Shown piece after piece: positions 10,445-24,131 of a DNA stretch of 32,000 nt. The position numbers and the translations under genes are program-made. Source of the stretch: an uncultured Gammaproteobacteria bacterium (GTDB lineage Bacteria; Patescibacteriota; Microgenomatia; Daviesbacterales; UBA10151). The stretch is from positions 52,266-84,265 of the forward strand of contig CAYHYM010000001.1 in the NCBI GenBank assembly GCA_964360965.1. The letters run 5' to 3'. Positions within the stretch are counted from its first letter, which is position 1. Every line of letters begins with the position of its first letter. The notes beneath the pieces were generated by a model. The model did not search any database. It was not told the DNA's origin and was given only the letters and a program-made list of their open reading frames with translations.

Positions 10445-10454
10445 ACACCCTCCT

Positions 10455-10490
10455 GTCATCCTGAACCCGCCACAGGCGGGTGAAGGATCT
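10455..10490 (+). repeat. GTCAT-hairpin (REP-like) element, copy 1
   Basis: gtcatcc tgaa cccgcc acag gcggg tgaa ggatct: inner stem ccgcc/ggcgg (cccgcc opposite gcggg) and outer stem atcc/ggat. Confidence 0.6.
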
Positions 10491-10523
10491 AATCTTTGGA
10501 TTTTAGCATAAACTTCCTTCCTA

Positions 10524-10550
10524 TGTCATCCCGACGAATGTCGGGATCCA
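10524..10550 (+). repeat. GTCAT-hairpin (REP-like) element, copy 2
   Basis: tgtc atcccgac gaat gtcgggat cca: perfect 8-bp stem (10528-10535 / 10540-10547). Confidence 0.6.
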
Positions 10551-10574
10551 TAAATAATGTGTTTAGTTGGATTC

Positions 10575-10627
10575 TCCTCGAGTCTGAGCGACCTCGGAGT
10601 CGAAGACCTGCATTTGCAGGAATGACA
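10575..10627 (-). repeat. GTCAT-hairpin (REP-like) element, copy 3, inverted
   Basis: The reverse complement reads tgtcattcctgcaaatgcaggtcttcgactccgaggtcgctcagactcgagg, with stem cctgca/tgcagg at 10607-10620. Confidence 0.5.
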
Positions 10628-10699
10628 GAAGAAAATCCTTAATTCCCTCTCTATCTCTTTTTAACCATTCCACATTGGAATGAACAAGTTTTCTCTTTC

Positions 10700-10729
10700 T
10701 TACCACGATCGGAGGATATTTGGTATAAT
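10700..10729 (+). promoter_or_regulatory. promoter for tRNA-Leu (ttacca-18-TGg tataat)
   Basis: ttacca at 10700-10705 and extended -10 tggtataat at 10721-10729, about 57 nt before the mature tRNA 5-prime end. Confidence 0.45.
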
Positions 10730-10739
10730 TATTTTTTAG

Positions 10740-10785
10740 GCCGAGGTGTTTACACCGAGCTTGCCGAGGTGTTTACACCGAGCTT
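10740..10785 (+). repeat. two perfect tandem 23-mers that each begin with the first 9 nt of the tRNA
   Basis: gccgaggtgtttacaccgagctt at 10740-10762 and again at 10763-10785. The tRNA starts gccgaggtg at 10786. Confidence 0.9.
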
Positions 10786-10868
10786 GCCGAGGTGCTGGAA
10801 TGGTAGACAGGCCAGTCTCAAAAACTGGTGATGGCAACATCATGAGGGTTCGACTCCCTCCCTCGGTA
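10786..10868 (+). tRNA. tRNA-Leu (anticodon CAA)
   Basis: Hand-folded cloverleaf. Acceptor gccgagg/cctcggt with a G1-U72 wobble. D stem ctg/cag. Anticodon stem ccagt/actgg with loop ctCAAaa. Long variable arm tgatggcaacatcat. T arm gaggg-ttcgact-ccctc. Discriminator a. CCA is not encoded. Confidence 0.9.
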
Positions 10869-10877
10869 CTCTGTGCG

Positions 10878-10937
10878 ACTATATGACTTCGCTCGAACAT
10901 ATTTTACCAAAAATTACTAACGCATTACTAGTCGGCG
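10878..10937 (+). repeat. left copy of the 60-nt inverted repeat bracketing the accessory block
   Basis: actatatgacttcgctcgaacatattttaccaaaaattactaacgcattactagtcggcg matches the reverse complement of 23358-23417 at 56/60 positions by hand alignment. Confidence 0.9.
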
Positions 10938-11001
10938 TCAACCTCAATCTCGTTTCCTACCTCATTACAAACTCCTACCTCAATCTTTCCATACTTCGAC
11001 T

Positions 11002-11044
11002 GGTTCGACTACTTCGGTTACACTCAGTACAGGTACGCTCACCA
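11002..11044. repeat. cttcgac/ctcagtacagg repeat family member
   Basis: ggttcgactacttcggttacactcagtacaggtacgctcacca matches 19062-19104 at 36/43 in the same orientation. The surrounding 10938-11130 is low-complexity DNA of the same flavour. Confidence 0.7.
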
Positions 11045-11337
11045 TAAATTCACTCACCACAAGTTCACTCAGGACAAGTCACTATCGCTTCCATGCTCAG
11101 GCTCGCACTTGTGGGCCTTCACTCTCCTTACCTTAACTTTAATTTAATTCAAAGAGAAATTTTCGCCAGCATTTTGTCCTAACTATCTATTGTATTTATT
11201 TTGAGTAACTAATTTACTTTAGAGTAAATATATTGTGCAATAGATATAAGTCTATGGAATTCCAGTCAACTACAGAACATTTTTAGGATCTAGTCCAAAT
11301 TAGCATAATTTTTAATAAAATAGGATATAATCGGCAT

Positions 11338-12147
11338 ATGGGAATTGAAAACAGAAGCCATTTTGGCAGAGAAAGACTACGGATGCCAGATCGTGATTAT
11401 AGCAGTCATGTTATTGGTGATCGATGCCCGCTTTTAGGAGGACCTTCTGTTGAAGAAGATGTTGCAACCTTATGGAGAAACTTAAGATATGGTCGTTTTC
11501 TCAAAGAAGAATTAAGAAAATTAAGGGAATATTTAAGTCTAAATTCGGGTTTGCCAGATAGTAGTGCTGACTTTAAAGCGGGAACTACTTTTGAGCCTGA
11601 TGTCTACCCTCATGGAACCATTATACTTGCAGGAAGAGAAGGAGACATATATATCACAACCAGAACCAGGGTTAGAAGGGAACCGTACAGGTCGCCTCTC
11701 CGAGGACCAGACATTGCTTCAGTTCTTTATGGAAGACCTGACTATTCAAAACCGGAATGGCAAGATAAAGGACTATGGTTAGAAAAAGAAGATTATAACG
11801 ATAGGCGACTTTTCCGAGGCAACCATTTTGGAATTATTATTAGATTGCCAAATACTCCCCACAATCAAACAGTACTGCTACAAAATAGCTGGGAGGAAAT
11901 TATGAAAGGCAAAGCGGACCTTAGATTTATTGAAGGTCAAGTGCCTATTAGTTCATGGAATCACTTAGTAACTTCGTATCTGGGGCCTGGATATAATCCT
12001 GATAAGAAAGTGTATACCCAAGATGATCTTTTCGATCGCTTTACTGGAATACAGATATTAGAGGTGGGAAAAGGTGTTAAAGAAGAAGTCAGAAGGCCCT
12101 TAGGAAGATTATCTACCGCTATAAGACGGGCTTTGGGTTCTACATAG
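11338..12147 (+). CDS. hypothetical protein (no recognisable family)
   Basis: 269-aa ORF, soluble and rich in charged and aromatic residues. tataat at 11326-11331 lies 6 nt before the ATG. First gene inside the left inverted repeat. Confidence 0.55.
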   Translation: MGIENRSHFGRERLRMPDRDYSSHVIGDRCPLLGGPSVEEDVATLWRNLRYGRFLKEELRKLREYLSLNSGLPDSSADFKAGTTFEPDVYPHGTIILAGREGDIYITTRTRVRREPYRSPLRGPDIASVLYGRPDYSKPEWQDKGLWLEKEDYNDRRLFRGNHFGIIIRLPNTPHNQTVLLQNSWEEIMKGKADLRFIEGQVPISSWNHLVTSYLGPGYNPDKKVYTQDDLFDRFTGIQILEVGKGVKEEVRRPLGRLSTAIRRALGST

Positions 12148-12155
12148 TACAATAA

Positions 12156-12494
12156 ATGAAAGAGGCTGGAGAGTTTCGAATATTCTGTCCTAAGGCTGAA
12201 CAATTTATGCCTATAAATGGTTCCTTTGAAGTTGACTTACCAGCTTTAGCCCGTGGAGAACAAATTTTTCTAGACTGTGACTATATGCGAGATGCTCAAC
12301 CTGTCAGAGAAGGGAGATTTGGCTGTCTTAAAGTTAGTGCATCAGAAGTAAACCTTAATGATTTAATAACAGTTAATGGCAGTGTTAATGAAGAAAAAGG
12401 AACGCTTGATGCTCAGCTTAACTGTGGACATTGTGGGAATAATGTAGATCTATCATTTCCATATCAGGATGGTAATACCGATAGCCAGCAGTAA
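12156..12494 (+). CDS. hypothetical protein (no recognisable family)
   Basis: 112-aa ORF starting 8 nt after the previous stop, so a likely operon partner. One CGHC motif near the C-terminus. Confidence 0.5.
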   Translation: MKEAGEFRIFCPKAEQFMPINGSFEVDLPALARGEQIFLDCDYMRDAQPVREGRFGCLKVSASEVNLNDLITVNGSVNEEKGTLDAQLNCGHCGNNVDLSFPYQDGNTDSQQ

Positions 12495-12840
12495 AATAAT
12501 TATCAGAATCCACCAAATATATTTTCTGGATGATTTTCTTTCCTCAATTGAAGAATAACTAAAAGGTTTCTTTTTCTCTTGCATTTTTAAAATCCATAAT
12601 TTTTAGGTTAATTTTAGCAGAAATTTAGATCAGAAGGTAGGGTAATTAGGGAGATTGGGGAGGTAAGGGAGATTGGCCCTCCTGCGCTGAAGCTTCGGTG
12701 GGTAAAGGTGATTCAGGTTGTTGGGGTTGTTCAGGGAGATCAGGCGGATTAGATGGATCAGAAGGAGTAGAAGGAACAGAGTCTGATGATTGATTAGGGT
12801 CATCTGGCATAAATTAAGTATACAACAAAACATTTCCTTC

Positions 12841-12868
12841 TTGACAAATATTATCAAACTAATATAAT
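12841..12868 (+). promoter_or_regulatory. consensus promoter TTGACA-16-TATAAT for the toxin-antitoxin operon
   Basis: ttgaca at 12841-12846 and tataat at 12863-12868. The ATG at 12878 is 9 nt downstream. Confidence 0.6.
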
Positions 12869-12877
12869 GATAATAGT

Positions 12878-13174
12878 ATGAACAGCACAATTTTACAAAT
12901 CCCTGTTAATAAAAACCTTCGTGACCAAGCTGCTAGCAGAGCAGAAAGGATGGGTTTTTCTTCCCTTCAGGAGGTAGTCAGATTATTCTTAAATAAAATA
13001 GCCTTGGGAGAAATTGATGTCAGCTTTGAGCCAACTGTGCAGTTATCCCCTAAGGCAATTAAAAGATATAACAAGATGATAGATGAGATTGAAGCTGGTA
13101 AAAATATTACTGGTCCCTTTACAGATGTAGGTGAAATGATGAAATATCTCCATGAAGGTAAAATTCCACGCTAA
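12878..13174 (+). CDS. RelB/DinJ-like ribbon-helix-helix antitoxin
   Basis: 98 aa. LQIPVNKNLRDQAASRAERMGFSSLQEVVRLFLNKIA fits the DinJ/RelB N-terminal pattern. It overlaps the downstream toxin gene by 23 nt. Confidence 0.7.
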   Translation: MNSTILQIPVNKNLRDQAASRAERMGFSSLQEVVRLFLNKIALGEIDVSFEPTVQLSPKAIKRYNKMIDEIEAGKNITGPFTDVGEMMKYLHEGKIPR

Positions 13175-13418
13175 GTTTATTAAAAATTACCGAAAAAGAA
13201 TTCTCAGTAATAAAAAACTTGATAATCAGGTCAAAATAAAAATTGAACAGTTTAAAATTAATCCTAATAATCCTATCTTAAAAGATCATAATTTAACTGG
13301 GACAAAGAAGGGATTAAAAGCATTTTCACTTACTGGAGATATCAGAATAATTTATAGACCTTCTTCCGACAATGAAGTAGTTTTTATGGATATTGGATCA
13401 CATAATCAAGTGTATTAA
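13152..13418 (+). CDS. YafQ/RelE-family mRNA interferase toxin
   Basis: 88 aa: KDHNLTGTKKGLKAFSLTGDIRIIYRPSSDNEVVFMDIGSHNQVY, matching the DH.L.G......R......D.R.IY......gsH pattern. Confidence 0.85.
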   Translation: MKVKFHAKFIKNYRKRILSNKKLDNQVKIKIEQFKINPNNPILKDHNLTGTKKGLKAFSLTGDIRIIYRPSSDNEVVFMDIGSHNQVY

Positions 13419-13423
13419 ATAAA

Positions 13424-13624
13424 TTATTTACTCCAGATTCCTCTTTTATTTTTCTTTGCTTCATCTTGGGCTACAAGTAATTCTTTCTGATATATCCAGG
13501 GTTTTTTGTGTCCCGCACCATACGGTACAGGACTATTTTGGTAGATAAGGGAGAAAGAAGTATTTTTAACATGAGGTAGGATATCTTCAAGTAAATTCTC
13601 TGAAACTGTAATTAATTTAGACAT
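13424..13624 (-). pseudogene. short chimeric ORF: repeat-derived N-terminus plus a thermonuclease (SNase) C-terminal tail fragment
   Basis: MSKLITVSENLLEDILPHVK... is shared with a second copy at 16231-16289. The C-terminus ...ELLVAQDEAKKNKRGIWSK resembles the ...EA.AKK.K.GIWS end of staphylococcal-type nucleases. It is far too short to be a nuclease. Confidence 0.35.
13566..13624 (-). repeat. 59-nt repeat, copy A (5-prime end of a small minus-strand ORF)
   Basis: ttaacatgaggtaggatatcttcaagtaaattctctgaaactgtaattaatttagacat matches 16231-16289 at 51/59 in the same orientation. Confidence 0.8.
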
Positions 13625-13693
13625 ATTTATTATATTACTCAATATTTAGTCTGATTTGCACTATTTATTCTCAAGTTGTATTATTCCATCATT

Positions 13694-14221
13694 ATGGTAA
13701 CTGAAGCTAGACCATCAATAGAATTTTTTAGACAAAGCTTAACTCAGCAAAAGGATTTAGTGGTTGCGGGAGAGGTTAGCCGTTCAAGTGAGAACTGGGC
13801 AGAATGGAGAATGGTTTTTGTAGCTCCAAAGAAACCTGCATATAGTCTAAGAGGAATTCAGGTTGTCTATAATAGATTCTTAAAGCAAGGTTTTAAAGTA
13901 TGTAACAGCACATATCAAGGTCAAGATTCTCTGCATTTGGGAGATATTGAATTTGATGAAGGTCAAATACCACAGGCAAGAAGATTACTTATATCTGTTT
14001 ATCCAGATGAAGGTTTAGCAAGAGAAGCTTATGAGTGGGAGGCAGCATGGGTGGAAAGAGGATCTACATTTGAGCAGTTACGTGGGAAATATCGTGCAGA
14101 AGGAAGACAGGAGCCCTATGTGGGTTATGTTCCAAATGATGTTTTAAGAGAAAAATGGTTAAAACACCAAGTTAATCAGATTAAATCTGCTCTAACTTTT
14201 TGGAAGAGACCTGCAGCTTAA
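13694..14221 (+). CDS. hypothetical protein (no recognisable family)
   Basis: ORF 13676-14221. I prefer the ATG at 13694 because ttgcac (13656-13661), 17 nt, tattat (13679-13684) sits 9 nt upstream. It ends in gcttaatattcac, the same 13-mer as the next gene. Confidence 0.5.
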   Translation: MVTEARPSIEFFRQSLTQQKDLVVAGEVSRSSENWAEWRMVFVAPKKPAYSLRGIQVVYNRFLKQGFKVCNSTYQGQDSLHLGDIEFDEGQIPQARRLLISVYPDEGLAREAYEWEAAWVERGSTFEQLRGKYRAEGRQEPYVGYVPNDVLREKWLKHQVNQIKSALTFWKRPAA

Positions 14222-14299
14222 TATTCACTTCTTCAAAATAATCCCATAGTTTGATATATAGCTTCCTCTTGTATATAATCTCATTCAATAGTTAAACTT

Positions 14300-15502
14300 A
14301 TGGCCACTGAACAAGGAATAATTAATTCTGGACAGGATTTTTTTAATTCACTTAGACTACGACATATTTATGGGGATCTGAATACAATTGAGGCTAAGAT
14401 TAACAAGCGAAGCTTCTTGAGGTTAACTAATCCTGACCCAGACATTGTAGCAGCTGAAGCGGAAAGGATAATTCAAGCTGGACCACTCAGAGGCATTTCC
14501 TTTATTGAAGCAAATAAACAAGGTTACTTTGTTTATGAAGGTGCACCAGTTCCACTTGCTTGGTGGGCACCACATAGGTTCGAAAGACAGTTTCTTACCA
14601 GATTAGCTCATTCACTCACTGGTGAATTTCCTTTTATACTAGATGTTGCATGCGGAACTGGATTACTTGCTAAATTACTAGCAGCAGAAACAGATGCAAA
14701 AGTAGTTGGTTTAGATCCAGGAGAAATATTTAATGAGATGTCTGGTATTGATCGTTTACCAGATACTCCTGGCAATATATTGCTTAGAAAGAAAGATGTT
14801 TGGAAAGCAGTAAATACCTATGGTCCAAAGTATCCTTATCAATTAAACCGAGAAAGAAGAGAATTGTTAAAAAGACTAAAAAGGGAACCTGAAAAAGTAT
14901 CTATTTTCTTATCTCCAGAGTATCCTTACTCATCTTCTGCTAAAGAAGGGTTCAATCGACCCAATGAAGGAGTTGAGGAATTATCTGATGAAGTGAAAAG
15001 AATCCAGGAAATAGCACCTCTTTACAAGGCTCCTTCCCCCATAGATTTAGTAATTTGCAGTTTTATGCCAGTTGGAGCTGATTTAACAGTACCTATCAGA
15101 GATGGCATTTATCCTAAGGGTATTGTTTATGTTAGACAAATGCGTGGTGGGACCGGAACAGGTGATTATTTCTTATATGAATATCTAAATCCTGAAAGTT
15201 CTAAAAGATTAAGATACTCTCAGATAAGTTTTAATCCAGGTGAACATTACCAAGTAGTTGCCAGATGGCCAACCCCAAGTCAAAATAATTGGCATGCTAG
15301 TGAAACTAATAAACTGCAAAGTCCTATGACTGCAGAAGTTGTGGTCCAACTGAGAAAGGATGTTGTTTTAGCCAAGACAGATAGGATCACTTGTCCAAGT
15401 TACCCTTGGGATCAGGATATAGAAGATTTTCTTGGACAAGTATTGAGGAAGGAACTCTTTTTTGCTGGTATTGAACAAGCTACAAATTCCTTATTTGCTT
15501 AA
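14300..15502 (+). CDS. class I SAM-dependent methyltransferase-like protein with large N-terminal and internal extensions
   Basis: 400 aa. Motif I ILDVACGTGLLAKLLA, then VVGLDPGE. A motif-II-like IDLVICSFMP appears only about 125 residues later. Confidence 0.55.
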   Translation: MATEQGIINSGQDFFNSLRLRHIYGDLNTIEAKINKRSFLRLTNPDPDIVAAEAERIIQAGPLRGISFIEANKQGYFVYEGAPVPLAWWAPHRFERQFLTRLAHSLTGEFPFILDVACGTGLLAKLLAAETDAKVVGLDPGEIFNEMSGIDRLPDTPGNILLRKKDVWKAVNTYGPKYPYQLNRERRELLKRLKREPEKVSIFLSPEYPYSSSAKEGFNRPNEGVEELSDEVKRIQEIAPLYKAPSPIDLVICSFMPVGADLTVPIRDGIYPKGIVYVRQMRGGTGTGDYFLYEYLNPESSKRLRYSQISFNPGEHYQVVARWPTPSQNNWHASETNKLQSPMTAEVVVQLRKDVVLAKTDRITCPSYPWDQDIEDFLGQVLRKELFFAGIEQATNSLFA

Positions 15503-15561
15503 TATTCACAACTTCCACCCTTCGATACTTCGACAAGCTCAGTACTCAGGGTAAACCTGAA
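15500..15561 (+). repeat. short form of a 3-prime-flank repeat that starts at the stop codon
   Basis: taatattcacaacttccacccttcgatacttcgacaag + ctcagtactcagggtaaacctgaa. The arms match 17325-17362 (35/38) and 17420-17443 (24/24). Confidence 0.85.
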
Positions 15562-15589
15562 TTAGCTATTTTTGTGCTAGAATTGCTTT

Positions 15590-15961
15590 ATGGCTAAGAA
15601 AGTCATAAGCTATGACCTTTTATTTGAAGTCAAAGATACTCTTGGTAGAAGGATACACACCACAAAAGATTACTGGCAGAAGATTAAAACCTTAAAGCAT
15701 CGAGAATTAAAATATGGTATTAATGAAGTTAAGACTACACTGACAAAACCAGATGAGATAAGAAGAAGTGTGACTGATTCTACTATTTTACTCTATGCAC
15801 AAAGACAGCAAAATTATGATATACTTATTGTGGCAGTTAAGGTTTTAAATGGTGAGGGTTTCTTAGTGACAGTTTATCAGACTAAGGATTATAAAAAGAA
15901 AGGAGAACTTATATGGCCAAAGCAAAAACAGAGGCTCGCCCTGAGCGAAGCCGAAGGGTAA
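15590..15961 (+). CDS. hypothetical protein, putative toxin-like partner of a DUF2283-like protein
   Basis: 123 aa. tgctagaat at 15575-15583 lies 6 nt before the ATG. ...PDEIRRSVTDSTILLYA...ILIVAVKVLNGEGFLVTVYQTKDYKKKGELIW recalls an uncharacterised small-protein family I cannot name with certainty. The last 8 codons lie in a GC-rich patch. Confidence 0.5.
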   Translation: MAKKVISYDLLFEVKDTLGRRIHTTKDYWQKIKTLKHRELKYGINEVKTTLTKPDEIRRSVTDSTILLYAQRQQNYDILIVAVKVLNGEGFLVTVYQTKDYKKKGELIWPKQKQRLALSEAEG

Positions 15962-16200
15962 AAATTTATCTTGATCCTGTAGCAAATACCTTTAATATTT
16001 GGTGGGATGATCCTAAAAAGGCTTATTCCTCTGAAGAGGTAGATTCTCCAAACAGGAATGACGTAATTATTAAAGATAAACAAGGCAAACCAATTAGTTT
16101 GGAAGTGATTGGTATATTTCCAAGTGAACTAAATGTGGCAGAGAAGCTTAAAAGGACAATTGGAACTCCCAAAGAACCACTGCTTCTTCAATCAATTTAA
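15913..16200 (+). CDS. DUF2283-like small protein (putative antitoxin-like partner)
   Basis: 95 aa. KIYLDPVANTFNIWW...VIIKDKQGKPISLEVIG resembles the DUF2283 pattern (YD...D.LYI ... D..G.IVGIEI). It overlaps the upstream gene by 49 nt across the GC-rich patch 15931-15959. Confidence 0.45.
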   Translation: MAKAKTEARPERSRRVKIYLDPVANTFNIWWDDPKKAYSSEEVDSPNRNDVIIKDKQGKPISLEVIGIFPSELNVAEKLKRTIGTPKEPLLLQSI

Positions 16201-16230
16201 TCCTTAATCTTTTTCTCTAAAGGTGTTCCT

Positions 16231-16289
16231 TTAACATGAGGCAGGATATCTTTTAATAGATTCTCTGAGACTGTAATTAATTTGGGCAT
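16231..16289 (-). repeat. 59-nt repeat, copy B
   Basis: Matches 13566-13624 at 51/59. It opens a 30-codon minus-strand ORF (16197-16289, MPKLITVSENLLKDILPHVKGTPLEKKIKD) that overlaps the stop of 15913-16200. Confidence 0.8.
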
Positions 16290-16358
16290 GACACAATTTT
16301 AGTCTATTAGATCTGGACAAAATGATAAAGTTGTGTAAAATAAACTAAAGTTTAATTT

Positions 16359-17327
16359 ATGACTCAAGAAACAAGAGCAGCTTTACTATTCCCAGGTCAA
16401 GGATTACCTTCTAAAGATATTGTTGCATGTTATCAAAGACTCAATAGTATTGATTCTACTCATATACAACAAAGATTAGGACGAGCCCAAGATGCAATAA
16501 ATAAAGTTCATGGAAGTGCTGCTTTTGATATTAATATTGCTTTGCAGGATGAAAAATCTCCAAGCTTTACTCAGACTTCTTTTGTACAACCTGTGGTTTA
16601 TACCCTTAGCGTCCTTACCTCTGAAATTACTGATGCTCACGGTATTGCCAGAATTGCTCCCAGTTTTGTGGCTGGGCATAGTTTAGGTGAGTACTCTGCT
16701 CTAACCAGGGCCAAAGTCTTTGATTTTGAACAAGGAGTTGATCTTGTTACATACCGAGGTTTGGTAATGGAAGAGGCATGTCAGAAAACCAAAAGCGTTT
16801 TACTTAGAATCAGTGGGTTAGCAGAAGATAGAGTAAGGGAACTTTGTCAACCAGGAGGCACAAGAATTGCTGAAGTTGCTTTGATCAATGCTCCAACATT
16901 GATAGTGGTAGGTTGTGCAGCAGAAGCTGCAACTGAAGTAGATAGATTAGCCAAAGAAGCTGGAGCTAGAGGTGCAACTGATTTAGGAACAGCTGGGGCT
17001 TTTCATACCACATTTATGGAAGAAGCAGCTGACAAATTGGATAAAAAACTATTTGAATATGACTTTAAACACCCAGAAATTCCAGTTGTAACTAATTTTA
17101 CAGGAAAACCTATATATCATAGTATGCAAGCACAAGATCATCTAATTCAAGGCATGATCAATCCAGTTCAGTGGGCTAAGGTATTAGAAACTTTACAGAC
17201 ATCAGGTGTCACGGTTTTTGCTGAAGTTGGCCCTGGAACTTCACTGGCTGCTTTAAATAGGATTAACAATATTCCTGAGGATAGAACAATAAATGTTCTT
17301 AACTGGTTTGAACCACGAGGTACTTAA
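16359..17327 (+). CDS. malonyl-CoA:ACP transacylase (FabD)-like acyltransferase
   Basis: 322 aa. ALLFPGQG near the N-terminus, nucleophile elbow GHSLGEYSAL, YRGLVM (Arg of malonyl-type enzymes) and GAFHTTFM. No other fatty-acid or polyketide gene is in the window. Confidence 0.85.
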   Translation: MTQETRAALLFPGQGLPSKDIVACYQRLNSIDSTHIQQRLGRAQDAINKVHGSAAFDINIALQDEKSPSFTQTSFVQPVVYTLSVLTSEITDAHGIARIAPSFVAGHSLGEYSALTRAKVFDFEQGVDLVTYRGLVMEEACQKTKSVLLRISGLAEDRVRELCQPGGTRIAEVALINAPTLIVVGCAAEAATEVDRLAKEAGARGATDLGTAGAFHTTFMEEAADKLDKKLFEYDFKHPEIPVVTNFTGKPIYHSMQAQDHLIQGMINPVQWAKVLETLQTSGVTVFAEVGPGTSLAALNRINNIPEDRTINVLNWFEPRGT

Positions 17328-17443
17328 TATGTACAGCTTCCACCCTTCGATACTTCGACAAGACTTCGACGGTGAGTCTTTCGACCCTGAGCTCAAGACC
17401 GAAGGGCTCAGTCGAACCGCTCAGTACTCAGGGTAAACCTGAA
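17325..17443 (+). repeat. long form of the 3-prime-flank repeat (same arms as 15500-15561 plus a 57-nt internal insertion)
   Basis: Insertion at 17363-17419: acttcgacggtgagtctttcgaccctgagctcaagaccgaagggctcagtcgaaccg, with the imperfect palindrome tcgaccctgagc ... gctcagtcga. Confidence 0.85.
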
Positions 17444-17591
17444 GCTGTTATTAAAAAGAGATTAGAACCTACTTCATAATAAGCTGCTTCATTTCCTCCA
17501 TCAGAATATGCTTTAGAGCCTAAAAATTTAAGTAGTTTGATATACAAAATATACCTTGTATTTTAACAATTAGGATAATAAGATAGATACC

Positions 17592-17948
17592 ATGGATGAA
17601 AGTAAACTTAAAACAATAGTTGAAGAAGTGGTAAATAAAGCCGTGGATCCAATCAAAAAACAGCTTGAAGATCCTAAAACTGGTTTAGCAGCAATCAATA
17701 GAAGGCTTGATGGTGTAGGAGGACAGTTGAATGATCCAGATACAGGATTAAAAAGAATTAATGAGAGATTAGATGCTAATACAGCAGCAGTCGTGGAACT
17801 TGAGAGTACAATAAAAGGCTACGCTGATTCATACCAGACAAATGATGCTAATATTAGGAAAGTGGAAAAAAGATTGGAAACTTTGGAAGAGGATGCAAGA
17901 GTAAATGTCCCTTCTGAGTTACAACTTGCTCCTCAATCTGACCTTTAA
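17592..17948 (+). CDS. coiled-coil protein with an internal repeat, unknown function
   Basis: 118 aa. DPKTGLAAINRRLDGVGGQL followed by NDPDTGLKRINERLDANTAAV is a direct repeat of DP.TGL..IN.RLD. Confidence 0.5.
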   Translation: MDESKLKTIVEEVVNKAVDPIKKQLEDPKTGLAAINRRLDGVGGQLNDPDTGLKRINERLDANTAAVVELESTIKGYADSYQTNDANIRKVEKRLETLEEDARVNVPSELQLAPQSDL

Positions 17949-17962
17949 TGCAAAACCTTTCA

Positions 17963-19273
17963 TCAGTTGTGTTCAATATATGCTTTGTAGCCAACTAGCT
18001 TTTTGTTATCCCCAGAGCCAGAGTAGATATTTTTAACTCCGAAGGTTAAAAAGAGATCATCTTTGGAATAGGTAATGGTAGTACCAGTATTATCTTGGGA
18101 ATTTAAAGTCTCTTTAAAGTTAGAATTGGTAAGTTGATTTGTATAGTAATCCAAAAAGGCTTGAGGAATTGATAATAATTGTTCAGATTCCAGATAAATA
18201 CCTTCCTCCTCAATTCTTCTTTTGCCTGAAGTAAAAAGTAATACCTTCTTTTGGGTTTTCTCCCATTTAATATCTGAGTAGAGTTTAGGGAGTCCCGTAC
18301 CATTCGGTACAGGATTAAAAGTAGTAAGTCCGCCTGTTGGAGAAACAGGGCTAGGTGAAGGCGTAGTCTCAAAAGAGATAATCTCGGAGACCTCTATTAA
18401 ATTAGGGGTGGGGGTTAAGTTGCCCTTAATTTGAACTTTCATGCCTTCAAAATCTGATAAGTTAACATTTTTTGATGCAGGGTTAAGGGTCCAGAGGGTT
18501 TTATTTTTATCATTTGCTTGCAGGTAATATCCTGCTGAGGATTTTTGGATTATTCCCTGGGCAGTAATACCTCTGTGTAAGATGGGAGAGAAATTAGGGA
18601 ATAGTTTACCAAGACCATAGTTTATACCTGATTTAAAACCTATCCCAAAACCTCCCAACCCCCCGCCCACTCCTGCCATGATAATAATTAAAGCTAAAAC
18701 AGGGATTCTTAAGGTAATCATCTGTCTTTTGAGCAGTTTATTTAAAAAAGCTCTTAAATAAGTAACAGGATTAGTTAAGAAAAAACCAAACAAAGGAGGA
18801 TCTTTTTTAGAAGAAGGTTGGGTATTTTGATTTATTTCTATAATGGGAGGAAGTCCCGCACCAGACGGTGCAGGATTAGGGGTATTTGGCTCGCCTGGTG
18901 GCGAAGCTGGGACAGGAGGAGGGGTAGTCTGTTCAACCTTTTCTTCATGTTCAGGGATAAATCTTCCATGTTCATCTCTTTTTTGATGGGAAGCCACAGC
19001 AGAATGGACTAAGTTTTCTGAAACAGGATATTGAGGGTAATCAGGGATATTGGGAGAATTTGGTTCGATTACTTCGACTGTGCTCAGTACAGGTACACTC
19101 ACCACAGGTGGGGTATTAGGGGCTGAAGGAGTAGGTGTTTGAGGAAAGGTTGGATTAACAGATTGTTGGTAGGGATTATCGGGATCTACAGGATTAGTAT
19201 GAGGGTTAAAGTTTGACCCAAAAGAAGGAGGGGGATTATTTTGATCCGGAGGATCTTTAGGCAGATTATCCAT
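17963..19273 (-). CDS. membrane-anchored protein with a Pro/Asn/Thr-rich N-terminal region, unknown function
   Basis: 436 aa. About 170 aa of low-complexity P-rich sequence, a TM segment IPVLALIIIMAGVGGGLGGFGIGF, and a C-terminal about 220-aa globular part. Confidence 0.6.
   Translation of the reverse strand: MDNLPKDPPDQNNPPPSFGSNFNPHTNPVDPDNPYQQSVNPTFPQTPTPSAPNTPPVVSVPVLSTVEVIEPNSPNIPDYPQYPVSENLVHSAVASHQKRDEHGRFIPEHEEKVEQTTPPPVPASPPGEPNTPNPAPSGAGLPPIIEINQNTQPSSKKDPPLFGFFLTNPVTYLRAFLNKLLKRQMITLRIPVLALIIIMAGVGGGLGGFGIGFKSGINYGLGKLFPNFSPILHRGITAQGIIQKSSAGYYLQANDKNKTLWTLNPASKNVNLSDFEGMKVQIKGNLTPTPNLIEVSEIISFETTPSPSPVSPTGGLTTFNPVPNGTGLPKLYSDIKWEKTQKKVLLFTSGKRRIEEEGIYLESEQLLSIPQAFLDYYTNQLTNSNFKETLNSQDNTGTTITYSKDDLFLTFGVKNIYSGSGDNKKLVGYKAYIEHN
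19062..19104. repeat. cttcgac/ctcagtacagg repeat copy embedded in frame in the P-rich ORF
   Basis: ggttcgattacttcgactgtgctcagtacaggtacactcacca matches 11002-11044 at 36/43. It is translated on the minus strand as ...VVSVPVLSTVEVIEP.... Confidence 0.7.
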
Positions 19274-19428
19274 GAAATTAGTATAGAACTAATTTGCAGA
19301 TTAAAGCAATAAATTGATTAGAGGGTGAGTTTAGGTGATGCAACTGTGTATATTGATAGGATATTAGTTTCTCCTAAAATTTTAAGCAGAACGTAAGAAC
19401 GTAAATTTTAAAAATTGTACGTGGTCAA

Positions 19429-19968
19429 TTAAGGCTTCATTATGAAAGGCTCAAGGTCTTCTCTTTTTAAAAGAGTAGATTCTGAACAATTTGCTACCAT
19501 AGCCACACTTGGCATGTGTGAGAAACCTACATATTCAACAAACTTACCTTTTTCTTTGGCTTTCTTAACTGCCGGAAGAAGATCTGTATCTGATGAAACT
19601 AAAGTAATATGGTCGCAAAGATTTTCATAGGTTGCGACCAAGATATCTACGGCTATATTGACATCTACTCCTTTCTCGTGCATTTTGCCTTTTGATTTTA
19701 ATAAATATCCCAATGAGTATCTGAATTTGTGCTTTTTTAAGTGTGCTAATAGCTTTTGTTGTTTGTCAAACAACCCTTGAACATGTTTTGTGCGATTAGT
19801 TCTGACTGCTCCCACATAATATATACACTCTACTAATTCTCCTTTTTTAGAAAGACTTTTGGCAAAAGAAGAAAAATTAAACGCTAACTCATTATGAAGT
19901 TTTAGATCTTTAAGCTTGAAGTAGAAGTTACTACCATCAATTAACACTATATAACGTTGTTTAGTCAT
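19429..19968 (-). CDS. NYN (LabA/DUF88-like) domain protein, putative RNase
   Basis: IVLIDGSNFYF, GVDVNIAVDILV, LVSSDTDLLPAVKKAKEKG. I use the ATG at 19968 (MTKQRY), 8 nt after a minus-strand tataat (19977-19982). The ORF track starts at the TTG at 19977. Confidence 0.8.
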   Translation of the reverse strand: MTKQRYIVLIDGSNFYFKLKDLKLHNELAFNFSSFAKSLSKKGELVECIYYVGAVRTNRTKHVQGLFDKQQKLLAHLKKHKFRYSLGYLLKSKGKMHEKGVDVNIAVDILVATYENLCDHITLVSSDTDLLPAVKKAKEKGKFVEYVGFSHMPSVAMVANCSESTLLKREDLEPFIMKP

Positions 19969-20005
19969 TGAGACCAATTATATAGCAAAGCTTGGGATAA
20001 AAAAA

Positions 20006-20034
20006 TCCTGCAAATGCCTTGCGGCCTTGCAGGA
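20006..20034. repeat. CCTGCA...TGCAGG hairpin (REP-like)
   Basis: tcctgcaa (20006-20013) pairs with ttgcagga (20027-20034) around a 13-nt GC-rich loop. Same stem core as 10607-10620. Confidence 0.5.
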
Positions 20035-20147
20035 GAGTTAAGTAATTGTATACTAACAAAATATTGGCAATATGTCAAGAAAAAATTGTAGGTGAGCAGT
20101 TGGCAGTGAAAACTTTATAGCAGAAACAAGAAGATATGTAAAGCAAA

Positions 20148-20176
20148 TTGCATATAGGCTCGTAAATCACTATAAT
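20148..20176 (+). promoter_or_regulatory. promoter TTGCAT-17-TATAAT, leaderless geometry
   Basis: ttgcat at 20148-20153 and tataat at 20171-20176. The ATG at 20183 is 6 nt after the -10. Confidence 0.55.
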
Positions 20177-20182
20177 TGCAGC

Positions 20183-20722
20183 ATGGCTATTGAAAGATTT
20201 ATTAAAGGCAGAATTATTGGCCCATATTTTGAAAGAGTAAGAAGGCAAAGGGAACAATCACAGCAACAGGTACAAGTGGAAACTGCTCGCGGAGAAATTA
20301 ATGCTCTTTTAGAGGATATATTTCCCAATGACACTGTTAAGGAATATACATTCAAAGATCCTGATATAGATTGGCCTCAACAGCTACCTTCATTAGTAAA
20401 CTTACACCCAGAAATTACTGATAAGGATTTAATATCAATCTCAGTTGATAGAGAATACTTAGGATGTCCCACTCTGCATATTAGTATGTATTTTGGGTAT
20501 TTTACAGATCCGCCTTATTATACAGTAACATCCTTGTTAGACAACAATCTTAGCAGTATTGAGGTTTATTCTGTAGCGACTACTGGAGATGCAATGACCC
20601 AAAGGTATAATAGTGAAAGTTATGTTGCTGAAATGCTTAGGTTAAAATTTATCAAGGAATCTTTATCCTTTGCCCTTTTGTGTAAGCAGTCTGAACTCCC
20701 TGATAGTGATGCAAGTCCATAA
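20183..20722 (+). CDS. hypothetical protein (no recognisable family)
   Basis: 179-aa ORF directly behind a near-consensus promoter. Confidence 0.55.
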   Translation: MAIERFIKGRIIGPYFERVRRQREQSQQQVQVETARGEINALLEDIFPNDTVKEYTFKDPDIDWPQQLPSLVNLHPEITDKDLISISVDREYLGCPTLHISMYFGYFTDPPYYTVTSLLDNNLSSIEVYSVATTGDAMTQRYNSESYVAEMLRLKFIKESLSFALLCKQSELPDSDASP

Positions 20723-20807
20723 AGATATGGTATGTTAGTTTCTCTCAATTTTAAACAATTTTAGGTTCCCTCCAGAGGCGGGCAGGCAAAAAAGGCAAAT
20801 TTTTGTG

Positions 20808-21494
20808 TCAATTAAGGCTGACACAATTCTGCCAGCGGGACAATTTATTTCTGATAAAACTTTTTAGCCTAGTTAATACACCTTCTCGTGGTTGAACTTT
20901 AGTAAATCTTGCTATATAAGGTAATTCTGGTATATATCCATGCATTTTATAAAAATGTTGGGTAAATGAAGGTAGGTTAAATAATTCAGCATCAAAACCA
21001 TCAGCATATTGATCTATAGCTGCAATATTTCCGATGTCAAAATTATTATGCTCTGTTAATCCCAAGGAATGCATATTGCTTCTTACTTCATTAAAAGGTG
21101 ATTCCCAAGGAGTATATGTTTCAACTACAGTTAATACTCCACCTATCTTTAATACTCTTGTTGCATCTTGGGTCATTTGTATACGATTTTGTGGAGGGAT
21201 TTTTTCATAACCAAATACATTACAAAATACAATTTCATCTACACTTTCAGTTCTTAGGGGCAACCCACGACCATCTGCTTTTACTAAATGGACATTTCTC
21301 TTATCTAAGCCCTCATGCTTTTTTATTCTATCTTTAGCATTAGCAAGAGTTGATTTATAATCACCATATAGATACACTCCTATATAGCATTCATTTTCAC
21401 TCAACTGTCTCTTACCAACTGTGGGGAATGGTTTTTCACCTACACCTATCTCAAGAATAATTCTTTTTTCGCCTTCACAACCCATGATGTGCAA
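20808..21494 (-). CDS. class I SAM-dependent methyltransferase-like protein
   Basis: 228 aa. ILEIGVGEKPFP (motif I-like), VDEIVFCNVFGY, LKIGGVLTVVE. The start could be the ATG at 21485. Confidence 0.55.
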   Translation of the reverse strand: MHIMGCEGEKRIILEIGVGEKPFPTVGKRQLSENECYIGVYLYGDYKSTLANAKDRIKKHEGLDKRNVHLVKADGRGLPLRTESVDEIVFCNVFGYEKIPPQNRIQMTQDATRVLKIGGVLTVVETYTPWESPFNEVRSNMHSLGLTEHNNFDIGNIAAIDQYADGFDAELFNLPSFTQHFYKMHGYIPELPYIARFTKVQPREGVLTRLKSFIRNKLSRWQNCVSLN

Positions 21495-21534
21495 TTATAG
21501 TCCGAACCTAACTCAGATTCAACCTATAGCTATT

Positions 21535-21879
21535 TTACAAAAATGTCTTCTGGCAGAGTATTAAGGTACTCTCTCTTTCATGAACGAATACATTCTGTTT
21601 GGTACCAGGTATAATGTGGAAAGCTACTTGCTCTGGCACTCCTTCATCTTTACGAGAGAATGATGCTAATATTATATCTTGCAACCGTTTTTGTAGAAAT
21701 AAAAACTCCTCGTCTGTAAGCCTGGTAATCTCATCATAAGAAAAGACAATTCTAGCCTCATCATATTCGGCCTCGACTTCGTCCTCTAAATCAATTCCTG
21801 ATATTTTTCTTGACCAATAATATAAACGATTGTACCAATATATTGGTAGATCGATTGCTTGGGGGTACTCTTTCCTCAA
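21535..21879 (-). CDS. hypothetical protein
   Basis: 114-aa ORF with a TTG start only. An ATG-initiated 36-codon ORF in another frame overlaps its 5-prime end (see rejected notes). Confidence 0.4.
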   Translation of the reverse strand: MRKEYPQAIDLPIYWYNRLYYWSRKISGIDLEDEVEAEYDEARIVFSYDEITRLTDEEFLFLQKRLQDIILASFSRKDEGVPEQVAFHIIPGTKQNVFVHERESTLILCQKTFL

Positions 21880-21941
21880 TTCGCTGGTTTAAACTTTCTA
21901 TCATACTTTTTAGTTTATTATTTGTGAGATTACTCCAGCTT

Positions 21942-22382
21942 TCATTCCCTGGATCCATCTAAAGTATAGTCTAAACGAGGTTTTGGTGTAAGAACTCCAG
22001 CATCAATTAGATTTCTATATTGCTCTGCTACATCAAAAATTATTTGTGGGTCTACTAAACCTCCTTTAGGTTTACCAAGATCAAACGATAGGTACCCATT
22101 AGGATTAAGCCCTAGTCGTTTGAGACTTACATCATCTTCATGCAAGGAGACATTAGATCCCCATTGTCGTATTTCTGCCACAGATCCTAGTGCATAAACA
22201 CTCGTAATATATAACATTGGCTTATCAGCAGAAAAACCTTGTCTGAGAGTAACGGTATCAAAAACCCTTGCCTCTTGTTCCTCATTATGTTGCAAAACAG
22301 CACATACAGCCTCTCTCACAGCCTGTTTTGCTGCTATTATCTCTTTTCCCTCCGAATCTTTTTCTTCTCTATCTTGAGTCAT
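21942..22382 (-). CDS. hypothetical protein
   Basis: 146-aa ORF, first gene of an apparent minus-strand three-gene unit (22382 to 20808), divergent from 22465-23181. Confidence 0.5.
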   Translation of the reverse strand: MTQDREEKDSEGKEIIAAKQAVREAVCAVLQHNEEQEARVFDTVTLRQGFSADKPMLYITSVYALGSVAEIRQWGSNVSLHEDDVSLKRLGLNPNGYLSFDLGKPKGGLVDPQIIFDVAEQYRNLIDAGVLTPKPRLDYTLDGSRE

Positions 22383-22464
22383 GGGCAGATTATACTCTGT
22401 TATAGGCTCAGATTACAATTCTCCGGTGATTGATATGTTCTATAGGACATGATAATATCAATTT

Positions 22465-23181
22465 ATGAGGCCAGAATTAGAACATGAAATAGCAGAGATT
22501 GTATTGGCAGACGAGCTACGTGCTGAAATGGAATGTACCAGTCATTCCCTTTTACGAGTCGTAGCTGAAAGATTGATTGAGGAAAAAGAACAATGGTCTA
22601 ATGAAACTCGCCATCAGATTGTAGATCAAGAGCCCGATTTTGAGAGATGTATACAGTTAACAAAAGCTTTGGATCAATCTGTGACTCCTTATCAATCACT
22701 TCTAACAGAGCTGGTACGTACAGAAAAAGCCATTGGCACTGGTCTTGATTACATAAGCATTATGGAGCTTGAGGATGATGAATTTGATAGGAGTTTACGA
22801 GAAAAACATCCTGGTACTGGAGGAGATAATTCTATCAGATTGCTTAGGTTATACGCTTCTCTTTCTGGTGATGAAACACTTAAACGAGCAGTTGAGGATA
22901 TTAATACTCCAACTTTTGAACAAGTAATCAGAGGAACTAAACCTGAAGAATTAGCAGTTGGAAAAGCAGAGAGCGCTCTCGCAGCTTTGCGGAATGGAAA
23001 TCTACTTATGGATGATCCCAGTGGTTTTCTGTTAGTTACACAATTTAGCGAAGAACACAACGATTCCCCAGTTCCCTTTTCAAGGCAAGGACAACCGGCA
23101 AGAGAGCAAGCAGCAAAAGATTATAAAGCAATGTATCTTGTAGGTACCAGAGCTGGACTTGGGCCATTACCTAAAGAATAA
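22465..23181 (+). CDS. hypothetical acidic protein
   Basis: 238-aa ORF. Extended -10 tgataatat (22450-22458) ends 6 nt before the ATG. Confidence 0.55.
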   Translation: MRPELEHEIAEIVLADELRAEMECTSHSLLRVVAERLIEEKEQWSNETRHQIVDQEPDFERCIQLTKALDQSVTPYQSLLTELVRTEKAIGTGLDYISIMELEDDEFDRSLREKHPGTGGDNSIRLLRLYASLSGDETLKRAVEDINTPTFEQVIRGTKPEELAVGKAESALAALRNGNLLMDDPSGFLLVTQFSEEHNDSPVPFSRQGQPAREQAAKDYKAMYLVGTRAGLGPLPKE

Positions 23182-23241
23182 AACTTCAGCTTCATAAGGA
23201 TTTTTCCTTTGTGGCGGCTTTCCTTGCCCCCGCCCCATCGG

Positions 23242-23288
23242 TTTAACGGATACCGTTAAATCACCGTTATGTCCATTAAACGGTGATT
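23242..23288. promoter_or_regulatory. two adjacent hairpins sharing AACGG/CCGTT cores
   Basis: tttaacgg-ata-ccgttaaa (23242-23260) and aatcaccgtt-atgtccatta-aacggtgatt (23259-23288). The four arms can pair in alternative combinations. Confidence 0.4.
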
Positions 23289-23357
23289 AGGTTGTTATAG
23301 CAAGCTAATCTTTATATAACGGACTACCTTTAAAATTATTTAAAATATCTTAAGGGG

Positions 23358-23417
23358 CGCCGACTAGTAATGCGTCAGTAGTTTTTGATAAAATATGTTC
23401 GAGCGAAGTCATATATT
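23358..23417 (-). repeat. right copy of the 60-nt inverted repeat
   Basis: cgccgactagtaatgcgtcagtagtttttgataaaatatgttcgagcgaagtcatatatt is the reverse complement of 10878-10937 with 4 mismatches. Confidence 0.9.
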
Positions 23418-23442
23418 CTTACAAAATTTTTTAGGCAGCTAT

Positions 23443-24081
23443 TTAAAGAGTAAAAGCAGTAGAACACCTGATAACTCTCTCATCATAAATCCAGGGTCTT
23501 TGGTGTTCTTGATCTTCATAACAAATTTTTCTTTCAAATCTACTGATTCTAAATGGCTGGCCAGCTTGAAGTCTATTTGATTCAAATATGACTTTGTAAG
23601 CAATATCAAAAGATTCAGTAGGATCAGTTTTAATTTTTGATTGGATAGTTGGTGGTCTTAAGGCTTCATCTATTTCACCTCTAAAGCCGGCTGAGACCGA
23701 CATTTCATCTTCTTCAGTTAATGTTTTTCTGTTAATAAACAATAACACCTCATCATCGCTCATATAAACACCAAGTTGAGATACTCTTAAAGTTTCTCCT
23801 CCATTGGTATATTCTTGACCCTGTAAAACTTTCCCTTCCATTTGGGCTTGTCTAAAAAGCATCAATTTACTCCCCCAATATCTTAATAAGATATCACTAT
23901 ATCGTGCACGCAGATCAAGGAATATTTGGGTATTACCATGGGTACTGAGTTCATGATCTAAAACATTAAATGCTTTATCAAGAAGTTGACCGTGGGATAT
24001 TTCTCCAAATTCTGCAGATTGTGGAAAATCTGGATCTGGAGGGATAATTCTTTGAAAGATTTCCAATTCTTGTATAGCCAT
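23443..24081 (-). CDS. hypothetical protein downstream of dnaB
   Basis: ORF 23443-24129. I prefer the ATG at 24081 (MAIQELEIF...) because the upstream 16 codons are Cys/Leu-rich junk directly after the dnaB stop. Confidence 0.55.
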   Translation of the reverse strand: MAIQELEIFQRIIPPDPDFPQSAEFGEISHGQLLDKAFNVLDHELSTHGNTQIFLDLRARYSDILLRYWGSKLMLFRQAQMEGKVLQGQEYTNGGETLRVSQLGVYMSDDEVLLFINRKTLTEEDEMSVSAGFRGEIDEALRPPTIQSKIKTDPTESFDIAYKVIFESNRLQAGQPFRISRFERKICYEDQEHQRPWIYDERVIRCSTAFTL

Positions 24082-24131
24082 ATAATGGCAAAGCTTACTA
24101 CAACACAAAATATAAAGCAAGCAGAACAATT

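Follow-up and report, generated by a model that had tools for sequence, protein, structure and literature searches.

A probable decayed integrative island at a tRNA-Leu gene of a Daviesbacterales genome and the large serine recombinase family to which its inverted repeat points

Introduction

In a 32,000-nucleotide stretch of DNA from an uncultured bacterium (contig CAYHYM010000001.1 of assembly GCA_964360965.1, positions 52,266 to 84,265; labelled Gammaproteobacteria and placed by GTDB among the Daviesbacterales), here called the window, a block of some 12.5 kb lies between a tRNA-Leu(CAA) gene and a transcription unit encoding DnaB, and is bracketed by the two arms of an inverted repeat. The sample is a groundwater metagenome from the Hainich (well H51, 0.1-um fraction). 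The locus raises the question of what the repeat is and what kind of DNA it encloses. An earlier note, made from the sequence alone, regarded the block as a likely home for an undescribed defence or conflict system, and proposed that the repeats could serve to invert the block, form the ends of a non-autonomous element or be a shared 3' insulator module. The evidence presented here points elsewhere. The arms are terminal pieces of the gene for a large serine recombinase, broken at the point where members of this recombinase family join to tRNA genes, and the block is probably a decayed integrative island, bounded by recombinase-site arms, at a variable chromosomal hot spot.

The inverted repeat and its identity

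A repeat search of the window returned an inverted repeat of 66 nt, 10872-10937 against 23358-23423, with 91% complementarity, the arms differing at 6 of 66 positions. The 60-nt repeat reported previously is thus real and slightly longer than described. No second repeat in the window comes near this pair, and its conserved cores of 26 and 18 nt occur exactly twice each in the window, with zero occurrences expected from shuffled sequences. Similarity to relatives begins at 10873, 3 nt rather than 10 nt past tRNA-Leu, and the outer end of the right arm lies 19 nt from the stop codon of the open reading frame (ORF) at 23443-24129. Both junctions recur at >99% identity in independent assemblies from the same aquifer samples, the left one in L023 and L024 and the right one in L001, L029 and L030 (related loci are given L numbers throughout), which makes an assembly artefact unlikely.

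When a 19-20-mer of the arm was used for exact-word scanning, about ten metagenome contigs matched, as did a genome of Blackburnbacteria and a bin carrying the label Gammaproteobacteria. In some ten unrelated contexts the similarity sets in precisely at a GT. Every true match contains about 50 nt of almost invariant sequence, GTGCGAATATATGACTTCGCTCGAACATATTTTACCAAAAATTACTAA, and in L003, L004, L005, L008, L011 and L013 the similarity begins at GTGCGA, behind unrelated sequence. A search of IMG/VR with an 18-mer gave two matches, one of which (L017) is a chance match in coding DNA whilst the other (L016) represents the L008 locus again. The earlier note had foreseen that the repeat might prove to be a common dispersed sequence, and it does recur after many unrelated genes in other genomes, though as the arm of a site-specific recombination site.

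The key to the identity of the arm is L009, where the 48 nt of the tail form the in-frame end of a 504-residue ORF (...PPTRDF followed by VRIYDFARTYFTKNY and a stop codon). This ORF has Resolvase, Recombinase and Zn_ribbon_recom domains and is therefore a large serine recombinase; the nearest solved structure to the family recombinase is that of the A118 integrase (E=1e-6). Read in the same frame, each window arm is made up of the final 16 codons of such a gene with its stop codon, followed by 17 nt of 3' flank, and encodes VR(L/I)YDFARTYF(T/I)KNY. In the recombinase frame the six differences between the arms are the synonymous exchanges GTG/GTA, CGA/AGA and AAT/AAC, a stop-to-stop change (TAA/TGA) and the conservative replacements L/I and T/I; the pattern is therefore that of sequence which evolved as coding DNA. 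Furthermore, the tail peptide is kept across divergent recombinases. Another frame considered for the arm, starting ATG ACT TCG, made the differences look non-synonymous and was abandoned, the recombinase frame being the correct one by tblastn.

When the recombinases of L009 and L012 were compared with the window by tblastn, only the two tails of 15-18 residues matched, VRLYDFARTYFTKNY in the left arm and VRIYDFARTYFIKNY in the right one, each ending in a stop codon, and Pfam found no Resolvase or Recombinase domain among the window ORFs. The previous statement that the block lacks an integrase holds for an intact gene, as judged by tblastn and Pfam, but overlooks that the arms themselves correspond to the 3' end of a recombinase gene. 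A diverged variant of the tail, GTGGAATTATA(C/T)GACTTCGCTCGAACATAT (VELYDFARTYF...), occurs at position 1554 of L010, 4928 of L014 and 375 of L015; in L014 it is 130 nt away from a tRNA gene of the other strand.

A recombinase family with its crossover at tRNA 3' ends

At E<=1e-20, 7,243 of the candidate proteins scored belong to the recombinase family, and most of them carry an annotation to the Candidate Phyla Radiation (CPR), or Patescibacteria. The C-termini were inspected for the best 120 out of the more than 7,000 homologues. Eleven of the 120 end in the native tail motif, (V/E)xIYxxARTYFxxN, and at least 72 end in a translated reverse-complement tRNA, for example ...GIEPVTFR or ...RIGLASPPWEGSILPVY. 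Throughout these best 120 homologues the tRNA fusions keep a fixed register, always three codons before the T-arm, and the crossover can therefore be placed at the discriminator base of the tRNA and the nucleotide that follows it.

The same junction can be read in the DNA of individual loci. In L012 the gene runs to ...PPTRDS and continues, at the same GT, as the reverse complement of tRNA-Val, the order on the DNA being tRNA...actgccc-AC-agagtcccgagttgg. Past the same GT the recombinase gene continues as the reverse complement of tRNA-Lys in L022 and of tRNA-Leu(CAA) in L032. The tRNA-Leu(CAA) 3' ends of L032 and the window are nearly identical, and the recombinase of L032 (P0189) has the C-terminus ...MVPREGVEPS, which is the exact translation of the 3' end of the window tRNA-Leu read as its reverse complement from GT. 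The window DNA is thus inserted at a known bacterial attachment site (attB) of the family. The order in L032, where the recombinase is intact, is tRNA-Leu(CAA), recombinase on the opposite strand, inverted copy of the gene end, GT, tail and cargo.

Three kinds of junction are observed: the gene body followed by its native tail (P-GT-P'), the gene body followed by a reverse-complement tRNA (P-GT-T), and unrelated flanking DNA followed by the tail (B-GT-P'). All of them fit recombination between an element site (attP) and attB with a 2-nt crossover. Both window arms start at GT, as do seven other junctions and the recombinase-tRNA fusions, and because their similarity starts at the very GT where most family members fuse to a tRNA, the arms represent the P' half of the recombinase attachment site. 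Each is a hybrid boundary site broken at the crossover of the family. In the window the discriminator A of tRNA-Leu and the next C occupy 10868-10869, giving GT on the opposite strand, and AC is found on both sides of the block, at 10868-10869 and 23421-23422; since only two nucleotides are shared, this carries little weight alone. The motif TCGAAC is common to the tail half-site (positions 19-24 from the centre) and the tRNA half-sites (positions 15-20), the distance from the centre being about 4 nt greater in the element half-site than in its host counterpart. This offset recalls the ~5-bp shift reported between attP and attB of A118-type integrases, and is offered as a lead only.

A family member would accordingly be expected to recombine the GT within its own C-terminal coding region with the AC at the tRNA discriminator and next nucleotide. 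On integration the body of the recombinase gene would become joined to the tRNA read as its reverse complement, and the tail of 16 codons would stay behind at the distal end of the element.

Layout and proposed history of the window locus

An intact element integrated in this way would read: tRNA, AC, recombinase on the opposite strand, a gap, the inverted gene-end copy, GT, the tail with its adjoining module, cargo, inverted tail, AC and flank, so that two inverted tails would bracket the cargo. The left junction of the window reads ...CCTCGGT-AC-TCT-GT-GCGACTATATGAC..., that is the tRNA end, AC, the last 3 nt of the P arm, GT, and then the tail and module up to 11167. The right junction, on the forward strand, reads ...GTCATATATTCTT-AC-AAAATTTTTT..., that is the inverted tail, AC, and the flank leading towards a 228-residue ORF and DnaB. 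The window thus has this layout minus the recombinase gene, with the right arm as the expected far junction. The gene was probably lost through a deletion of ~2 kb between two near-identical 8-mers, CTCGGTAC at the tRNA end and CTCGGGAC in the inverted gene-end copy. What is left, 10870-23422, would be the immobilised and decaying remainder of one element, or of nested ones, in the hypervariable interval between DnaB and EF-P; a single element seems the likelier source, and it is presumably inactive at present. Excision of the block would join ...CCTCGGTAC to AAAATTTTTTAGGCAGC.

The same geometry, tRNA on the forward strand followed at a distance by the inverted tail, AC and flank, recurs in L013, a second decayed remnant without a recombinase. 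There, the 1.7 kb from tRNA-Leu to the inverted tail (9093-10770) hold only two fragments of an rve-type (IS481/IS3-like) transposase, and AC and flank follow the tail.

By its EF-P homologues the organism belongs to Candidatus Daviesbacteria, a lineage of the CPR/Microgenomates. Comparison with relatives shows that the block is accessory, as had been supposed. In L019, whose EF-P is 83% identical to that of the window, the order is HisRS ... MBL-DnaB, tRNA-Leu(CAA), a kinase, peptidase M1, HicAB, a DUF2283 pair and EF-P-Lgt-DksA; in L018 (EF-P 86% identical), peptidase M1, a Fic protein and others precede EF-P. By tblastn none of the window ORFs from 11338 to 24129, the 228-residue ORF at 23443-24129 included, matches L018 or L019. 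The DnaB-EF-P interval, compared over window positions 10460-24131, is wholly different among these three Daviesbacteria, and because L018 and L019 keep the flanks without the block genes, it can be considered a variable hot spot containing a tRNA gene. The extra DNA of the window sits 3' of tRNA-Leu. Two of its proteins are near-orphans: that of 269 residues has one non-self homologue among 5.8 billion proteins, and for that of 238 residues, beside the right arm, the 1.84 billion cluster representatives include five relatives.

A number of observations weigh against an island formed in this way. The left junction matches neither attL nor attR in canonical form, so that a further deletion has to be assumed, the support for which, the 3-nt TCT remnant and a 7-of-8 microhomology, could be due to chance. 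The window encodes no recombinase, and no fragment of the body of the gene was found in it by tblastn with the L009 and L012 queries. A precise empty site (tRNA-Leu...GGTAC followed by AAAATTTTTT...) was not found in relatives, and in L019, the nearest relative with long context, tRNA-Leu is followed by another gene, the kinase. The 8-10 kb available in L012, L025, L021 and L033 showed no intact element with both tails, and the bracketing of cargo by two inverted tails is deduced rather than observed in other loci. The P arm shows no obvious symmetry to the P' arm. Finally, IMG/VR holds no relative of the recombinase, and a PHROG scan found no phage or conjugation genes in the cargo.

Competing explanations

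The alternative that survives best, though it too is unlikely, is that only the 2-kb recombinase cassette is mobile, its terminal inverted repeats being the end of its own gene and the inverted copy of that end. The tails would then be chromosomal targets mimicking the T-arm of a tRNA, the left junction of the window would be an unoccupied target, and the block would be ordinary variable chromosome rather than cargo. Inverted repeats of 77-153 nt do flank the recombinase gene in seven loci. In this reading the cassette, a recombinase gene between inverted repeats that moves with a 2-nt crossover, would resemble serine-recombinase transposons such as Tn4451 (TnpX) and IS607. A crossover at the AC inside GGGACTCT, followed by precise excision from a layout like that of L012, would give exactly the left junction of the window; the tail and tRNA half-sites have TCGAAC in common; and assemblies often break at the gene-end and tail repeats. 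However, the spacing between AC and GT is 3 nt in L012 and 4 nt in L032, and a crossover at AC would therefore lack a constant geometry, whilst at seven junctions unrelated DNA stands directly at GT with no TCT, which fits a crossover at GT. Among related samples, tails with 100% identical downstream DNA occur in different contexts, an indication that it is the tail side that moves. The conservation of the tail peptide across divergent recombinases is that expected for part of a gene. Unlike Tn4451 and IS607, the family offers no transposon-like copy with both ends at several sites, and its targeting is specific for tRNA ends.

It is also rather improbable that the arms are two independent scars, left by integrations of related elements at tRNA-Leu and at a secondary site, with mosaic DNA between them. 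The 6 differences in 66 nt exceed the divergence between repeat copies in L009, L022, L031 and L032, which are 95-100% identical; the two fragments of a staphylococcal nuclease (SNase) gene and the several internal repeat pairs of the block suggest repeated events; and insertion-sequence fragments lie inside the similar remnant of L013. On the other hand, the copies of L012 are only 89% identical, so that 91% is within the observed range, and the orientation of the right arm is exactly that expected for the far junction of an element at tRNA-Leu. Furthermore, the two window arms agree in all 17 nt past the stop codon, which differ from those of all other loci, and thus point to a common recent origin.

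Far less probable is an active invertible segment, inversion of the block having been raised in the earlier note, in which a recombinase encoded elsewhere would flip the 12.5-kb block through its arms. The repeats are indeed inverted, and related recombinases occur in the same aquifer metagenome, such as that of L022, which belongs to the same series of samples. Large serine integrases are known to act on attP and attB, or on attL and attR given a directionality factor, but are not known to recombine two like sites, whereas both arms are junctions of flank and P' arm and thus share one half-site type. Of the right arm only 66 nt are left, no recombinase is present in the window, and a single orientation is found in five independent contigs that cover the junctions (L001, L023, L024, L029 and L030).

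The remaining idea, that the arms are a shared terminator, insulator or small RNA, can be set aside as the least probable of all, for although both follow the 3' end of a transcription unit (tRNA on the left, the dnaB unit on the right), they contain no terminator-like site, no excess of promoters and no stable fold (folding energies of either strand are not better than those of shuffled sequences, with z-scores of -0.56 to +1.75), Rfam reports only tRNAs in the window and 13 related loci, and the end of a protein-coding gene accounts for the sequence.

Of the possibilities raised previously, the ends of a non-autonomous element came close, in that the arms are remnants of a recombination site, but they are not the ends of a transposon. 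A transposon or miniature inverted-repeat transposable element (MITE) with terminal inverted repeats was rejected because there is no duplication beyond AC and because elsewhere single arms occur, never a pair, in unrelated contexts. Other candidates were also discarded. A group II intron, suggested by the GTGCG start, has no Rfam intron match in the window and the 13 loci, and the arm is a coding gene end; the discovery of the recombinase gene disposed both of a dif/Xer-like site and of a MITE having short GCGAAWATWT ends; and a phage origin was rejected as ten block proteins gave no PHROG match and IMG/VR no relative of the recombinase.

The inverted gene-end copy and the tail module

In seven loci (L009, L012/L025, L021, L022, L031, L032 and L033) an inverted copy of the last 77-153 nt of the recombinase gene, up to the GT, lies 300-430 nt upstream of that gene. 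Its identity to the gene's own end is 89-100%, being lowest in L012 (89%) and 95-100% in L009, L022, L031 and L032. The copy is followed by the native tail and a repetitive module of ~300 nt that ends in ...GGAAATTTTCGC; the unit that follows the left tail of the window is the one found after the tail in L012, L009, L004 and L033. It is attractive to consider that the combination of inverted copy and tail could let the recombinase gene invert itself, exchanging its C-terminal tail.

Several loci diverge just past GGAAATTTTCGC, which forms a second sharp breakpoint (window 11154-11167; about 3270-3290 in L012; also L009, L004 and L033). The reverse complement of the module end (GCGAAAATTT) resembles the start of the tail (GCGAATATAT), and a TTGAGTAAC motif follows the module end in the window, L012 and L033. 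In L002, L003 and L011 (for example L011 1000-1700) about 1 kb of non-coding DNA, 70-75% conserved, separates the tail-module from a helix-turn-helix (HTH) gene; it includes near-invariant blocks such as CTTTACAGTCTCTACCACGGCGAGGAGCGAAAAAC and has no Rfam match. The DNA past the right arm of the window was considered as a counterpart to the 3' end of this stretch, but BLAST gave no significant match.

The contigs of L022, L026, L027, L028, L031, L034 and L035 start 350-600 nt upstream of a family recombinase gene, close to or at the place of the inverted gene-end/tail repeat, and in L022, L031 and L034 the start was confirmed to lie at this repeat. Elements of this family thus appear to break CPR assemblies systematically. 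In L012 (3709-8174) and L025 (3143-7608) a diversity-generating retroelement follows directly after the tail-module, beside the recombinase, and consists of Avd, a reverse transcriptase and a 996-residue target protein ending in ...NPGIGVCFSR.

Relation to known systems

The family has the set of Resolvase, Recombinase and zinc ribbon domains found in the integrases of A118/LI, Bxb1 and phiC31 and in SprA of SPbeta, and shares with the large serine integrases of phages and integrative elements its sharp breakpoints, with ~2 nt common to the recombining partners. It departs from them in three respects. Its target is the extreme 3' end of tRNA genes, whereas in a survey of mycobacteria tRNA sites were those of tyrosine integrases and serine integrases integrated elsewhere (PMC10654092). 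Its element site lies inside its own coding end, so that integration exchanges the last 16 residues of the protein, and a second, inverted copy of the site lies upstream of the gene.

Parallels can be drawn with two other groups. In archaeal integrases of the SSV1 type attP lies within the integrase gene, which is partitioned or altered when the element enters a tRNA gene. The likeness lies in the attachment site inside the integrase gene and in the tRNA target. By contrast, these are tyrosine recombinases of archaeal viruses, with a gene split in two large parts and a longer shared core, whilst the present family is of the serine type and loses a 16-codon tail. The tRNA islands of the Islander/TIGER type resemble the block as accessory DNA at a tRNA 3' end, with attachment-site remnants, at a variable hot spot, decayed and with the integrase lost. 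They typically involve tyrosine integrases and direct repeats of the 3' part of the tRNA, whereas the repeats of the block are inverted and not derived from the tRNA, its only direct repeat being AC.

Both tRNA-linked islands and large serine integrases are well known, and the block is an ordinary dead member of this general kind. What is unusual in the family is the use of tRNA 3' ends by a serine recombinase, the site within its own last 16 codons and the inverted spare site upstream. No description of tRNA-targeting serine recombinases in CPR bacteria was found in the literature, which, coverage being incomplete, is weak evidence of novelty. A wider proposal can be put forward tentatively: that this is an undescribed, large family of recombinases, annotated mostly in CPR/Patescibacteria, which integrate at the discriminator/CCA of many tRNAs, have their site in their own last 16 codons and have this tail replaced by tRNA-derived residues; that the inverted spare copy could flip the gene and restore the native tail, providing a self-encoded switch of form or directionality; and that the window holds a dead copy.

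For the window, an apparent mystery island becomes an ordinary decayed mobile element, and the case for a new defence system is removed. The recombinase family is of more interest than the block itself. It would account for many odd C-termini in CPR protein catalogues, for many contig breaks in CPR assemblies and for a source of gene flux at tRNA genes in the small genomes of these bacteria. Were the tail swap or the inverted spare site to control directionality, this would be a new way of regulating a serine integrase, and the family would offer many natural enzymes that target tRNA ends.

Gene content of the block

The features of the locus are collected in Table 1. The gene content is largely as reported before: a YafQ toxin, an NYN protein, two methyltransferase-like proteins and a FabD-like protein have matches, and about ten ORFs are without a family. 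The YafQ_toxin match, at 13152-13418, scores 35.3 bits against a Pfam cut-off of 30, and the 98-residue ORF upstream, which has no family match, overlaps the toxin gene by 23 nt. With a toxin above the curated cut-off and a small overlapping upstream partner, this is a predicted type II toxin-antitoxin pair of the YafQ/RelE type.

Table 1. Positions of the repeat arms, junctions, genes and gene remnants in the window
Feature	Position	Strand	Remarks
tRNA-Leu(CAA)	10786..10869	+	3' end is the attachment site (attB half-site)
TCT, last 3 nt of recombinase P arm	10870..10872	+	GGGACTCT directly before GT in L012 and L002; probable remnant of recombinase-gene deletion
Left arm, coding part	10873..10920	+	proximal copy ('tail2') of P' arm; last 16 codons and stop of large serine recombinase gene, VRLYDFARTYFTKNY
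Left arm, 17 nt past stop codon	10921..10937	+	identical in both window arms
Module (tail and ~250 nt of repetitive non-coding DNA)	10873..11167	+	ends in GAGAAATTTTCGCC (11154-11167)
Cargo or remnant genes overall	11338..23181	.	
269-aa near-orphan protein	11338-12147		adjoins module
112-aa protein			between 269-aa protein and toxin-antitoxin pair
Putative antitoxin and YafQ toxin	12878-13418		antitoxin without family match
SNase pseudogene	13424..13642	-	N- and C-terminal pieces fused
181-aa protein, then methyltransferase-like protein of 400 aa			listed in this order after YafQ pair
PBECR2-like and DUF2283 pair	15590-16200		weak matches
Second fragment of SNase N-terminus	16200..16289	-	82% identical to 13554-13624
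FabD-like acyltransferase	16359-17327		Pfam match; below NCBIfam equivalog cut-off
Coiled-coil 118-aa protein			between FabD-like and 436-aa genes
436-aa protein	17963..19273	-	49% identical to gene beside SNase in L031
NYN protein	19429-19977		Pfam match
179-aa protein			between NYN and methyltransferase
Methyltransferase	20808-21494		fold match, Pfam
114-, 146- and 238-aa proteins			after 20808-21494, toward right arm
Right arm	23358..23423	-	tail 23422..23375 (VRIYDFARTYFIKNY, stop) and the same 17 nt, after which similarity stops; distal junction, reverse-complement P'-AC-flank on + strand
AC crossover dinucleotide, distal junction	23421..23422	+	matches AC at 10868-10869
Chromosomal flank	23443..25493	-	228-aa ORF without assigned family, and DnaB

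The proposal of a new defence or conflict system was not supported. PADLOC found no complete known defence system; it gave single-gene matches of the NYN protein to HEC-09 (2e-16) and to an NYN model, together with weak coiled-coil matches and weak mad2 matches to methyltransferase folds. Nothing in the block speaks for a new defence system that would form a coherent whole, and its pseudogene fragments and repeats speak of decay. A lone nuclease and toxin-antitoxin pairs belong to the usual content of islands. Ten of the block proteins were without PHROG matches.

The SNase fragments and the 436-residue ORF tie the block to loci that have a recombinase. Intact SNase genes lie 1-10 kb from tails in L011, L002, L003, L012 and L031, and an SNase fragment is similarly placed in L021; L031, the source of the homologue of the 436-residue protein, carries an intact family recombinase. 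The block also contains internal repeats of 83-93% identity (15498-15570 and 17323-17452; 11001-11044 and 19061-19104; 13510-13535, 18292-18317 and 18853-18878). Together with the pseudogene fragments they are typical of decay. Some of these repeats are intergenic and follow genes, and others lie inside the proline-rich N-terminus of the ORF at 17963-19273. The contig of L024 ends at window position 17415, inside one such repeat, and that of L001 at 17555, ~100 nt past it.

Sequences upstream of the tRNA gene

A sigma-70-like promoter (TTACCA-18-TATAAT) lies at 10700-10729, upstream of tRNA-Leu. Outside the element, a unit of 23 nt, GCCGAGGTGTTTACACCGAGCTT, is repeated in tandem at 10740..10794 on the forward strand, with 2.4 copies that are 100% identical, and repeats the first 9 nt of the tRNA-Leu gene.

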